Shown piece by piece: positions 28,123 to 34,389 of a stretch of DNA of 64,000 nt. The notes under the pieces are model-generated. The model saw only the letters and a list, made by a program, of their open reading frames with translations, was not told where the DNA came from and ran no database searches. The stretch's first letter is position 1. Each line of letters starts with the position of its first letter. Source of the stretch: Eledone cirrhosa (lineage: Eukaryota); contig OZ024741.1 in assembly GCA_964016885.1 (NCBI GenBank), positions 214,520,001 through 214,584,000 of the forward strand, written 5' to 3'. The position numbers and the translations under genes were made by a program.

Positions 28123-29068
28123 TTGTATGTGTATACATACATATACACATACATACATATGTAAGTACGTATATAAATACATACATGTAAACATACATAT
28201 ATACGCATGTAAGTACATATTTACTTACATACACAGGTATGTAAGTACATACTTACATATATAGACATACATGGAACTAGATATTACACCTTTAGTTCAT
28301 CAAATCGAGAGATATTTAATCAGTGAGAGTGCACAATGACTCGGCAGGTAGTCGGTGATATGACTTACATAAACTTTCAAACAGAGATATGGAACATATA
28401 CACCAACGTATAATAAGCATTGTTTTATATTCTACTGCAATCGAAATATCGATTTTTCTCTGACCAGAACACTGTTACCTAATCAATTTATCAGGTAAGT
28501 GTTCCATGGTGACACTCCCTCTAGACAAAATTCACACTGTCTGCGAGATTAAATACATTCTAGGCAAGACAGGTAATGTATAAAACCAGGACTTAAGTAA
28601 GTTTTTCTAGACGAGGTATCACCTTTCAATATATTAATACATATATATTATATATATATATATATATATATATATATATATATATATATATATATATATA
28701 TATATATATATATATATATATATATATATATATATATACATACATACATACATATATATATATATATATATATATAAAAACAAATAACGAAACGAAATTA
28801 AATTTCGTTTCGTTTGTAACTCACTTTTGTATGACTGACGCTTAAACAATTAAGTTAAAAATGTACATCCATATATGTATACTGAAATACTAGTATGCAT
28901 ATGAATACACACACGTATACATATGTAGATGTACCGAGTTTTTCACTGGTCACTTTACTGCGAGTGTCCAGCTATTCTGTATGTAAACACACAGACAAAC
29001 CGGTTTTTAGAGTCATACTGGTTTTTGAGGAAACACCTTTCCTCTATTCTCCAGAAAGCCAGACAAGG

Positions 29069-31443
29069 AATATTGAACTAGTTTCGATGTTGTTACATCT
29101 CATCAGCAATATTTACCTATCTTCCGGCCTCTCTAGAGAATCGTAAAAGCACATATCGTTATATGCTTTTTCTATGAAAATTAGTAGTGGGCAGACTAAT
29201 TTGCATAGAGCGTGAGTACGTACCGGTTCAACGGAGACGATAAAAACAAATAACGAAACGAAATTAAATTTCGTTTCGTTTGTAACTCACTTTTGTATGA
29301 CTGACGCTTAAACAATTAAGTTAAAAATGTACATCCACATATGTATACTGAAATACTAGTATGCATATGAATACACACACGTATACATATGTAGATGTAC
29401 CGAGTTTTTCACTGGTCACTTTACTGCGAGTGTCCAGCTATTCTGTATGTAAACACACAGACAAACCGGTTTTTAGAGTCATACTGGTTTTTGAGGAAAC
29501 ACCTTTCCTCTATTCTCCAGAAAGCCAGACAAGGAATATTGAACTAGTTTCGATGTTGTTACATCTCATCAGCAATATTTACCTATCTTCCGGCCTCTCT
29601 AGAGAATCGTAAAAGCACATATCGTTATATGCTTTTTCTATGAAAATTAGTAGTGGGCAGACTAATTTGCATAGAGCGTGAGTACGTACCGGTTCAACGG
29701 AGACGATAAAAACAAATAACGAAACGAAATTAAATTTCGTTTCGTTTGTAACTCACTTTTGTATGACTGACGCTTAAACAATTAAGTTAAAAATGTACAT
29801 CCACATATGTATACTGAAATACTAGTATGCATATGAATACACACACGTATACATATGTAGATGTACCGAGTTTTTCACTGGTCACTTTACTGCGAGTGTC
29901 CAGCTATTCTGTATGTAAACACACAGACAAACCGGTTTTTAGAGTCATACTGGTTTTTGAGGAAACACCTTTCCTCTATTCTCCAGAAAGCCAGACAAGG
30001 AATATTGAACTAGTTTCGATGTTGTTACATCTCATCAGCAATATTTACCTATCTTCCGGCCTCTCTAGAGAATCGTAAAAGCACATATCGTTATATGCTT
30101 TTTCTATGAAAATTAGTAGTGGGCAGACTAATTTGCATAGAGCGTGAGTACGTACCGGTTCAACGGAGACGATAAAAACAAATAACGAAACGAAATTAAA
30201 TTTCGTTTCGTTTGTAACTCACTTTTGTATGACTGACGCTTAAACAATTAAGTTAAAAATGTACATCCACATATGTATACTGAAATACTAGTATGCATAT
30301 GAATACACACACGTATACATATGTAGATGTACCGAGTTTTTCACTGGTCACTTTACTGCGAGTGTCCAGCTATTCTGTATGTAAACACACAGACAAACCG
30401 GTTTTTAGAGTCATACTGGTTTTTGAGGAAACACCTTTCCTCTATTCTCCAGAAAGCCAGACAAGGAATATTGAACTAGTTTCGATGTTGTTACATCTCA
30501 TCAGCAATATTTACCTATCTTCCGGCCTCTCTAGAGAATCGTAAAAGCACATATCGTTATATGCTTTTTCTATGAAAATTAGTAGTGGGCAGACTAATTT
30601 GCATAGAGCGTGAGTACGTACCGGTTCAACGGAGACGATAAAAACAAATAACGAAACGAAATTAAATTTCGTTTCGTTTGTAACTCACTTTTGTATGACT
30701 GACGCTTAAACAATTAAGTTAAAAATGTACATCCACATATGTATACTGAAATACTAGTATGCATATGAATACACACACGTATACATATGTAGATGTACCG
30801 AGTTTTTCACTGGTCACTTTACTGCGAGTGTCCAGCTATTCTGTATGTAAACACACAGACAAACCGGTTTTTAGAGTCATACTGGTTTTTGAGGAAACAC
30901 CTTTCCTCTATTCTCCAGAAAGCCAGACAAGGAATATTGAACTAGTTTCGATGTTGTTACATCTCATCAGCAATATTTACCTATCTTCCGGCCTCTCTAG
31001 AGAATCGTAAAAGCACATATCGTTATATGCTTTTTCTATGAAAATTAGTAGTGGGCAGACTAATTTGCATAGAGCGTGAGTACGTACCGGTTCAACGGAG
31101 ACGATAAAAACAAATAACGAAACGAAATTAAATTTCGTTTCGTTTGTAACTCACTTTTGTATGACTGACGCTTAAACAATTAAGTTAAAAATGTACATCC
31201 ACATATGTATACTGAAATACTAGTATGCATATGAATACACACACGTATACATATGTAGATGTACCGAGTTTTTCACTGGTCACTTTACTGCGAGTGTCCA
31301 GCTATTCTGTATGTAAACACACAGACAAACCGGTTTTTAGAGTCATACTGGTTTTTGAGGAAACACCTTTCCTCTATTCTCCAGAAAGCCAGACAAGGAA
31401 TATTGAACTAGTTTCGATGTTGTTACATCTCATCAGCAATATT
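29069..31443 (-). ncRNA. Six identical hammerhead ribozymes (29069-29113, then every 466 bp to 31399-31443)
   Basis: Reverse complement: AATATTG CTGATGA GATGT AACA ACATC GAAA CTAG TT CAATATT. Confidence 0.9.
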
Positions 31444-31948
31444 TACCTATCTTCCGGCCTCTCTAGAGAATCGTAAAAGCACATATCGTTATATGCTTTT
31501 TCTATGAAAATTAGTAGTGGGCAGACTAATTTGCATAGAGCGTGAGTACGTACCGGTTCAACGGAGACGATAAAAACAAATAACGAAACGAAATTAAATT
31601 TCGTTTCGTTTGTAACTCACTTTTGTATGACTGACGCTTAAACAATTAAGTTAAAAATGTACATCCACATATGTATACTGAAATACTAGTATGCATATGA
31701 ATACACACACGTATACATATGTAGATGTACCGAGTTTTTCACTTAATTGTTTAAGCGTCAGTCATACAAAAGTGAGTTACAAACGAAACGAAATTTAATT
31801 TCGTTTCGTTATTTGTTTTTATCGTCTCCGTTGAACCGGTACGTACTCACGCTCTATGCAAATTAGTCTGCCCACTACTAATTTTCATAGAAAAAGCATA
31901 TAACGATATGTGCTTTTACGATTCTCTAGAGAGGCCGGAAGATAGGTA

Positions 31949-33857
31949 AATATTGCTGATGAGATGTAACAACATCGAAACTAGTTCAATATTCCTTGTC
32001 TGGCTTTCTGGAGAATAGAGGAAAGGTGTTTCCTCAAAAACCAGTATGACTCTAAAAACCGGTTTGTCTGTGTGTTTACATACAGAATAGCTGGACACTC
32101 GCAGTAAAGTGACCAGTGAAAAACTCGGTACATCTACATATGTATACGTGTGTGTATTCATATGCATACTAGTATTTCAGTATACATATGTGGATGTACA
32201 TTTTTAACTTAATTGTTTAAGCGTCAGTCATACAAAAGTGAGTTACAAACGAAACGAAATTTAATTTCGTTTCGTTATTTGTTTTTATCGTCTCCGTTGA
32301 ACCGGTACGTACTCACGCTCTATGCAAATTAGTCTGCCCACTACTAATTTTCATAGAAAAAGCATATAACGATATGTGCTTTTACGATTCTCTAGAGAGG
32401 CCGGAAGATAGGTAAATATTGCTGATGAGATGTAACAACATCGAAACTAGTTCAATATTCCTTGTCTGGCTTTCTGGAGAATAGAGGAAAGGTGTTTCCT
32501 CAAAAACCAGTATGACTCTAAAAACCGGTTTGTCTGTGTGTTTACATACAGAATAGCTGGACACTCGCAGTAAAGTGACCAGTGAAAAACTCGGTACATC
32601 TACATATGTATACGTGTGTGTATTCATATGCATACTAGTATTTCAGTATACATATGTGGATGTACATTTTTAACTTAATTGTTTAAGCGTCAGTCATACA
32701 AAAGTGAGTTACAAACGAAACGAAATTTAATTTCGTTTCGTTATTTGTTTTTATCGTCTCCGTTGAACCGGTACGTACTCACGCTCTATGCAAATTAGTC
32801 TGCCCACTACTAATTTTCATAGAAAAAGCATATAACGATATGTGCTTTTACGATTCTCTAGAGAGGCCGGAAGATAGGTAAATATTGCTGATGAGATGTA
32901 ACAACATCGAAACTAGTTCAATATTCCTTGTCTGGCTTTCTGGAGAATAGAGGAAAGGTGTTTCCTCAAAAACCAGTATGACTCTAAAAACCGGTTTGTC
33001 TGTGTGTTTACATACAGAATAGCTGGACACTCGCAGTAAAGTGACCAGTGAAAAACTCGGTACATCTACATATGTATACGTGTGTGTATTCATATGCATA
33101 CTAGTATTTCAGTATACATATGTGGATGTACATTTTTAACTTAATTGTTTAAGCGTCAGTCATACAAAAGTGAGTTACAAACGAAACGAAATTTAATTTC
33201 GTTTCGTTATTTGTTTTTATCGTCTCCGTTGAACCGGTACGTACTCACGCTCTATGCAAATTAGTCTGCCCACTACTAATTTTCATAGAAAAAGCATATA
33301 ACGATATGTGCTTTTACGATTCTCTAGAGAGGCCGGAAGATAGGTAAATATTGCTGATGAGATGTAACAACATCGAAACTAGTTCAATATTCCTTGTCTG
33401 GCTTTCTGGAGAATAGAGGAAAGGTGTTTCCTCAAAAACCAGTATGACTCTAAAAACCGGTTTGTCTGTGTGTTTACATACAGAATAGCTGGACACTCGC
33501 AGTAAAGTGACCAGTGAAAAACTCGGTACATCTACATATGTATACGTGTGTGTATTCATATGCATACTAGTATTTCAGTATACATATGTGGATGTACATT
33601 TTTAACTTAATTGTTTAAGCGTCAGTCATACAAAAGTGAGTTACAAACGAAACGAAATTTAATTTCGTTTCGTTATTTGTTTTTATCGTCTCCGTTGAAC
33701 CGGTACGTACTCACGCTCTATGCAAATTAGTCTGCCCACTACTAATTTTCATAGAAAAAGCATATAACGATATGTGCTTTTACGATTCTCTAGAGAGGCC
33801 GGAAGATAGGTAAATATTGCTGATGAGATGTAACAACATCGAAACTAGTTCAATATT
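31949..33857 (+). ncRNA. Five identical hammerhead ribozymes (31949-31993, then every 466 bp to 33813-33857)
   Basis: 7-bp stem I, 5-bp stem II, palindromic ACTAGT stem III, GUU site, intact core. Confidence 0.9.
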
Positions 33858-34389
33858 CCTTGTCTGGCTTTCTGGAGAATAGAGGAAAGGTGTTTCCTCA
33901 AAAACCAGTATGACTCTAAAAACCGGTTTGTCTGTGTGTTTACATACAGAATAGCTGGACACTCGCAGTAAAGTGACCAGTGAAAAACTCGGTACATCTA
34001 CATATGTATACGTGTGTGTATTCATATGCATACTAGTATTTCAGTATACATATGTGGATGTACATTTTTAACTTAATTATATATATATATATATATATAT
34101 ATATATATATATATATATATATATATATATATATATATATATATATATATATATATATATATATATATATATATATATATATAGATATATAGATATATAT
34201 ATATAGACATACATACATATATATATATATATATATATATATATATATATATATATATATATATATATATAGATATATAGATATATATATATAGACATAC
34301 ATATATATATATATATATATATATATATATATATATATAGACATACATACATATATATATATATATATATATATATATATATATATATA

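Follow-up and report, generated by a model that had tools for sequence, protein, structure and literature searches.

A divergent hammerhead array in a (TA)n microsatellite

The window, a 64,000-nucleotide stretch of Eledone cirrhosa DNA (assembly GCA_964016885.1, contig OZ024741.1, positions 214,520,001 to 214,584,000, forward strand), contains a divergent array of a 466-bp unit that carries a hammerhead ribozyme. The two arms comprise 6.37 + 5.02 units and show a single difference (position 28872) across 5.3 kb. Six hammerhead cores lie on the minus strand and five on the plus strand, each facing the outer end of its own arm. Positions within the unit are given as phases, counted from the predicted ribozyme cut (phase 1 = 31987). 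The features are as follows.

28629..28773, no strand: left (TA)n target microsatellite, flanking the left arm
28774..31743, minus: tailed left arm, 2,970 nt, 6.37 units; ends outside at site A (phase 302) and inside at phase 129
28774..28847, minus: the "tail," phases 229-302, between priming sites B and A; 13-bp hairpin; terminal on the left arm only
29069..29113, minus: type I hammerhead, first of six; repeats at 29535, 30001, 30467, 30933 and 31399
31741..31743, no strand: inversion junction, where the arms overlap by the 3-nt microhomology ACT; phases 129/221
31741..34078, plus: tail-less right arm, 2,338 nt, 5.02 units; ends inside at phase 221 and outside at site B (phase 228)
31949..31993, plus: type I hammerhead; repeats at 32415, 32881, 33347 and 33813; predicted cut after GUU at 31986
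31987..32452, plus: a predicted 466-nt monomer, bounded by two successive cut sites
34079..34389, no strand: right (TA)n target microsatellite, flanking the right arm

This layout agrees with the original prediction, made from the window alone, of 11 near-identical 466-bp units (six minus, five plus) joined at ACT with (TA)n on both sides. The outer ends (302 and 228) and the junction (129/221) also lie at different phases, as it had stated. A 329-bp direct repeat (97%) flanks the array at 27794-28122 and 34387-34715, with a divergence too high for a target-site duplication.

The hammerhead consists of a 7-bp helix I, a 5-bp helix II with a G-C closing pair, and a 2-bp helix III with a palindromic loop. 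By the definitions in the passages compared of PMC4209133, it has the canonical type I form of metazoans, which is expected to act as a dimer; the type I assignment of the original prediction stands, and its label of a minimal hammerhead fits less well. The unit is non-coding, also as predicted, with a longest open frame of 86 amino acids and no open reading frame (ORF) of its own for reverse transcriptase (RT) plus GIY-YIG. Its folding is far more stable than that of shuffled sequences (z = -10.1; 0 of 100 shuffles equally stable), and its GC content of 36% is below the ~45% expected of retrozymes without long terminal repeats (non-LTR retrozymes). No hammerhead model reached the gathering score in an Rfam scan of the window, where the sole hit was a tRNA-like sequence at 22673-22737, barely over that score and probably the head of a short interspersed nuclear element. 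Among 22 units from different loci, the ribozyme core does not vary, and in six of them one pair of helix II is swapped from A-U to U-A. The pair swap and the invariant core indicate, at the sequence level, that the ribozyme is maintained by selection. Double compensating changes occur at only 2 of 148 predicted pairs, most other changes being single and G-U tolerant. The cut-site triplet is GUC in older units (71 matches vs. 197 for GUU).

Across the 3.0 Gb of genome searched, one ribozyme variant has 4,133 exact matches, compared with 0 for a reversed control, and units with the swapped helix II pair fall outside this count. The family is dispersed and multicopy, lacks LTR structure, and its copies end in (TA)n junctions, of which 2,222 are at site A and 808 at site B on the forward strand. 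On every testable feature the element is a non-LTR retrozyme, for which self-cleavage and circular RNA are predicted. The retrozyme-type unit of the original prediction (tandem, with a type I hammerhead, non-coding, GC-poor, self-paired and multicopy) is thus borne out. At window position 32101 (phase 115), where G is found in the window and its youngest relatives, all scored contigs of sequencing run X1 have A; the sample of run X1 may lack the youngest subfamily. Contigs of runs X4 and X5 form single closed loops over the unit, but a homogeneous DNA array would look alike, and they were not used.

Several related sequences were observed. A third hammerhead family resembles the 466-bp unit at ~66%, tail hairpin included, and also occurs inverted (L079:279-985); fragments of it lie at window 14556-14880. 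Further short hammerhead-like copies lie beside (TA)n at 6740-6850, 9545-9620 and 14775-14830, one of them a small head-to-head pair. Inverted and tandem 320-bp hammerhead-like repeats at 19491-20728 are followed by a GIY-YIG fragment whose family has ~55,000 candidates in the genome. At 43349-46771 on the minus strand, an uninterrupted frame of 1,140 amino acids with RT and zf-RVT domains is probably an intact non-LTR retrotransposon.

Outer and inner ends of the arms

The ends of the arms were compared in a first sample of 20 best-hit loci and 26 consecutive insertions on contig C1, of which 30 loci were two-armed with both ends readable. The 16 loci dropped were single-armed (eight), masked (two), a duplicate (one) or cut by a long interspersed nuclear element (LINE; one), or had a second arm that was very short (two) or ran into other sequence (two). 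Outer ends cluster at two sites ~70 nt apart, A (phase 300-302) and B (phase 225-234), and an A end is paired with a B end in 29/30 two-armed loci (P = 3×10−8 vs. independent choice), including 18/18 in the consecutive chromosome sample. A prospective sample of 40 new loci was then fetched through the A end alone. Clear B arms are present at 27 of them (22 aligned, five short ones recognized by eye) and weak ones at two, and a second A arm at none; the remainder are six single-armed loci, three that extend beyond the end of the stretch (two later seen with a facing B end) and two that run into other sequence. Pairing by coordinate in the first 118 Mb of C1 placed 45 of 72 B ends opposite an A end and left 22 without an exact-pattern partner. 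Contigs of run X1, which may or may not derive from the source sample, also contain loose ends in (TA)n, at phases 228, 233 and 302.

The inner ends behave differently and are compatible with a uniform distribution (P = 0.31, Kolmogorov-Smirnov test). The predicted ribozyme cut is crossed by 53 of 60 arms, by 24 of them twice or more, which rules out a cleaved linear monomer as one-pass template. There is no pile-up at the cut, with 2/60 inner ends within 10 nt of it (2.7 expected); one arm of locus L035 starts at phase 3, adjoining the cut. Among 279 motif matches, 273 run through the cut without an indel, two lose one base, and four are unrelated sequence or arm ends. Automatic calling at 26 arm junctions gave a 0-5 nt overlap or a 3-4 nt insert in 16, 140 nt at one symmetric locus, and no call in nine, probably owing to nearby single-nucleotide polymorphisms (SNPs). 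Fold-back of a single cDNA was rejected, as the A arm is longer in 16 and the B arm in 13 of 29 loci, arms under one unit included.

In the passages compared of PMC11167929, the protein of a Penelope-like element (PLE) cleaves and extends both DNA strands and starts inside the RNA at two sites that bound the genomic tail, and those of PMC8557442 describe PLE insertions as an inverted truncated copy with a one-ended tail in microsatellite targets. The retrozyme ends thus show a PLE-type insertion signature: an inverted, 5'-truncated second copy, a tail at one end, two fixed starts and a (TA)n target, although the tail (~70 nt) is longer than the usual 30-40 nt of PLEs. It is very probable that the retrozyme is inserted by PLE-type priming at two sites. 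The original prediction had taken the ends to be permuted and had counted fixed termini in all copies against itself. Its view holds for the random inner ends and fails for the outer ends, which are fixed at ~302 and 225-234, one per arm; this refines the model rather than refuting it, because PLE reverse transcriptase uses fixed internal starts (PMC11167929, same passages). Its proposal of two cDNA arms primed from opposite sides of a (TA)n break is supported.

The same build recurs in an unrelated 310-bp hammerhead family (4,225 ribozyme matches), where 10/10 two-armed loci among 11 examined are A/B-like, with a tail of ~30 nt. One divergent array of this family, with 4.6 + 2.5 units in (TA)n, occupies window 1-1367 and starts ~820 bases before the window (L050:7178-9368). 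Its ends lie at phases 165 and ~139; the family is very young, and its arms reach 14 units.

The genome also contains a PLE with RT, CxxC linker and GIY-YIG (Pfam), of Neptune type by its linker according to the passages compared of PMC8557442. Open RT + GIY-YIG frames of 784 amino acids are present in 13 of 150 scored matches, and seven fetched copies differ by 1-24 nt. At 8/8 two-armed loci of this PLE, one tailed (38-nt) and one tail-less end lie in (TA)n. From these sequence features the Neptune-type PLE is a candidate helper of the retrozyme. At two places, L063/L107 (G000:C1:41489652-41493391) and L223:158-3160, the 3' part of this PLE directly abuts a retrozyme arm within one (TA)n-bounded block. 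These blocks would fit both template switching and a later PLE insertion with deletion, and are regarded as leads only. Comparing the 466-bp unit with 30 GIY-YIG loci gave no homology, except to the third ribozyme family (66% alike), a family without a demonstrated link to an ORF. Young PLE copies (L181-L187) have a 4.8-kb period, with the tail directly upstream of the next ORF start. At L188-L190 (G000:C2:359.51-359.54 Mb), copies of a two-armed PLE block follow one another in tandem every ~3.9 kb, which represents amplification of PLE insertions as DNA.

Variants shared by all units and the template of the arms

Both arms of a locus carry one haplotype, and loci differ from each other by fixed changes. 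Loci L038, L040 and L046, for example, differ from their nearest neighbor at 7-9 sites and have 0-1 internal variants. The variant spectrum was compiled from 70 of 77 loci, with substitutions read on the ribozyme strand and a rare allele defined as one present at no more than five loci. Rare variants carried by every copy of a locus number 59, and among them A>G is far more frequent than T>C (29 vs. 7, P = 1.6×10−4), with five G>A and three C>T. The 130 single-unit variants are strand-symmetric, with 16 A>G vs. 18 T>C and 24 G>A vs. 20 C>T, and the A>G:T>C contrast between the two classes is significant (P = 0.006, Fisher's exact test). The A>G:C>T ratio is 29:3 in the all-copy class and 16:20 in the single-unit class (P = 8×10−5). 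Tolerance of G-U pairs alone does not explain the excess of A>G because it would favor C>T equally, and C>T is not enriched. The A>G:T>C bias is kept at stricter cut-offs (15:5, P = 0.024; 18:5; 24:7), and in the 310-bp family both all-unit variants are A>G. The neighbor preference of ADAR is weakly seen (5' U at 14/29 vs. 47/146). RT error is not favored as the source of A>G, which accounts for only 2/35 substitutions in the PLE frames. The simplest reading of this pattern would be A-to-I editing of paired RNA, after which that one edited molecule was copied repeatedly into all units of both arms. The original prediction had drawn repeated copying of one monomer from the homogeneity of a single array. 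This homogeneity is not proof, and it is the pattern across loci that supports the claim, indirectly.

Whether arrays are born long or grow later was evaluated from variants shared by some of their units. No partly shared variant is present in 22 of 30 loci with at least four copies, and locus L224 has 20 singletons and 0 shared variants. Such variants are likewise present at 0/10 loci of the 310-bp family, whose young arrays have 2-14 units per arm. With its one SNP, the window array is too recent to distinguish, by itself, birth at full length from later growth. The longest arrays did grow by DNA-level duplication. In the 15-unit array, which was compared with the idea of a dimer circle from a dead ribozyme, variants alternate without a clean period.

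We propose that the arrays are transcribed and that the hammerhead would cut the multimers to 466-nt monomers, which would then be circularized, with some A in paired RNA converted to inosine. A PLE RT/GIY-YIG protein, whose signature is seen at the ends, would open (TA)n and extend both DNA ends, at sites A and B. Both RTs would travel around the same RNA, each over a distance set at random and often through several rounds, and all units would copy one molecule, as the mutation pattern indirectly suggests. The cDNA ends would be joined by 0-5 nt of microhomology or a short insert to give the divergent array, in keeping with the junction structures, and some arrays would expand afterwards by DNA-level duplication, as the longest did. 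Repeated copying of one RNA is probable, and we hold this with good confidence. A covalently closed circle is the likely template, and the array is likewise likely to be a non-autonomous non-LTR retrozyme insertion, made in trans by PLE machinery through rolling-circle copying, as its sequence suggests. We lean only slightly toward the full account, in which the arrays would record twin-primed rolling-circle reverse transcription by a telomerase-related PLE that extends both (TA)n ends from two fixed sites of one circular RNA, A-to-I edits are stamped on all units and drive heritable evolution, and a ribozyme-less Neptune-type PLE rich in open frames serves several unrelated circular RNA parasites.

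Without a circle, the same two-site priming might act on an uncleaved linear multimer, read through from the parent array. This would equally account for the scarless crossing of the cut and the lack of pile-up there, and the anole PLE works on unprocessed RNA (PMC11167929, passages compared). It also suits a variant common to one unit in each arm of L038 and a variant alternating with period two in L035. A linear multimer, however, predicts unit-specific edits, yet singletons are symmetric (16:18) and the all-unit variants are the A>G-biased ones. Without a single-unit bottleneck, a new variant could not spread to all units of both arms, and the arms could only get shorter with each generation. 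We consider the linear multimer unlikely. Less probable still is the origin of multimers from short two-armed PLE-type seeds by later unequal crossing-over, in the manner of minisatellites, which the preprint 10.64898/2026.07.22.740005 discusses. Such growth would yield variants fixed across all units, and recurring, partly shared variants are indeed found in the 31- and 15-unit arrays. In the window, however, 6.4 + 5.0 units with one SNP would require both arms to have been separately expanded almost simultaneously, the 310-bp arrays and L224 have the shared-variant counts given above, and seeds above one unit would still require a template that spans the cut.

A third alternative would do without ligation. 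One linear cleaved monomer, its ends held by helix I, would be recopied by exact end-to-end template jumps, behaving like a circle. This gives the identical one-molecule signal, and the arm of L035 that begins at phase 3 lies beside the cut. The RT of DRT2 reportedly copies a non-coding RNA repeatedly, which was counted for such jumps. Template jumps usually add or drop bases, though, and the exactness of 273/279 crossings and the absence of enrichment of inner ends at the cut make this mechanism very unlikely. An assembly or amplification chimera is scarcely credible. Near-identical inverted repeats are difficult to assemble, but the flanks are not inverted copies of one another and share only the 97% direct repeat, dozens of loci of varied age, in three families, follow the A/B rule, and the ends recur in the separate run X1.

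Several observations weigh against twin-primed copying of a circular RNA by a PLE. GUU is a weaker hammerhead cut site than GUC. The direction of substitutions was taken from allele rarity among 70 of thousands of loci, not from a tree, and the strictest spectrum test, on private variants, is weak alone (A>G 11 vs. T>C 4, P = 0.07). Partly shared variants do occur in 8/30 multi-copy loci, mostly arrays of 31, 15 and 12 units. The A/B rule has exceptions, namely one A-A locus (L035) and two B-B loci, the latter made up by five ends in the coordinate pairing on C1, and ~1/6 of loci are single-armed. In the Neptune-type PLE there is no recognizable hammerhead and no likeness between its ends and the 466-bp unit, and other PLE families are abundant (54,999 candidates genome-wide). 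In the part compared of a Xenopus study, 8/9 predicted dimers showed no cleavage, and in that of PMC11167929 uncleaved RNA served as the main substrate of the anole PLE.

Relation to known elements and significance

The divergent arrangement can be compared with several known systems. In LINE-1 twin priming, two target ends prime one RNA and the cDNAs join at a microhomology, giving an inversion; there the position of the second start varies, with hardly any overlap between the two parts. Here, in contrast, neither start varies, and each arm spans the complete unit many times. With animal non-LTR retrozymes, as the passages compared of PMC7229834 and the preprint describe them, the element shares tandem non-coding units that each contain one type I hammerhead, strong self-pairing, thousands of dispersed copies and co-occurrence with PLEs. 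Its 466-nt unit differs from the 170-400 nt given in PMC7229834, with up to 972 in the preprint. The same passages contain no description of two divergent arms, two fixed starts, targeting of (TA)n or A>G variants in all units. Here the unit gave no homology to a PLE end in the few PLE families compared. Neptune, Poseidon and Naiad PLEs (PMC11167929 and PMC8557442, passages compared) resemble the array in their inverted 5'-truncated copy, one-ended tail, microsatellite targets and two internal RT starts, whereas the array has no RT or endonuclease of its own, a tail of ~70 rather than 30-40 nt, and arms that extend over several complete units. The non-autonomous Chlamys elements, MRC1 among them (PMC8557442), are PLE dependants that also form multicopy head-to-tail insertions; they differ in the likeness of their 3' end to that of autonomous families and in being mostly without hammerheads, and divergent ribozyme arrays are absent from the passages compared.

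How animal retrozyme arrays form is disputed, either as tandem cDNA from RNA circles or by later satellite-type amplification. In the passages compared, PMC7229834 defines non-LTR retrozymes and proposes tandem cDNA made from circles by PLE or LINE RT. The preprint ties retrozymes to PLEs by their distribution and by homology to PLE pseudo-LTRs (pLTRs; 24/57 Xenopus families), tends to favor satellite-type amplification at a later stage, discusses unequal crossover as a route, and states that life-cycle evidence is limited (sections compared). A term search of its main text gave no match for "tail" or "orientation." No description of two-armed tailed retrozyme arrays or of all-unit A>G variants was found in the literature searched, which included few subscription papers; supplementary figures on insertion sites in PMC7229834 or the preprint could bear on this. 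Repeated copying of a circular RNA by a PLE enzyme is proposed in print and not demonstrated in the literature found.

An integrating RT that copies circles and prefers particular sites would, if true, be of technical interest, and a young template family together with open-frame candidate helpers in one genome offers a direct route to in vitro reconstitution. The all-unit A>G pattern provides a sequence-only test between the two models of array formation, usable on any genome with such arrays. The rule of one tail per insertion suggests that the PLE tail mirrors an asymmetric two-primer reaction, and the insertion signature connects retrozymes to PLE machinery.

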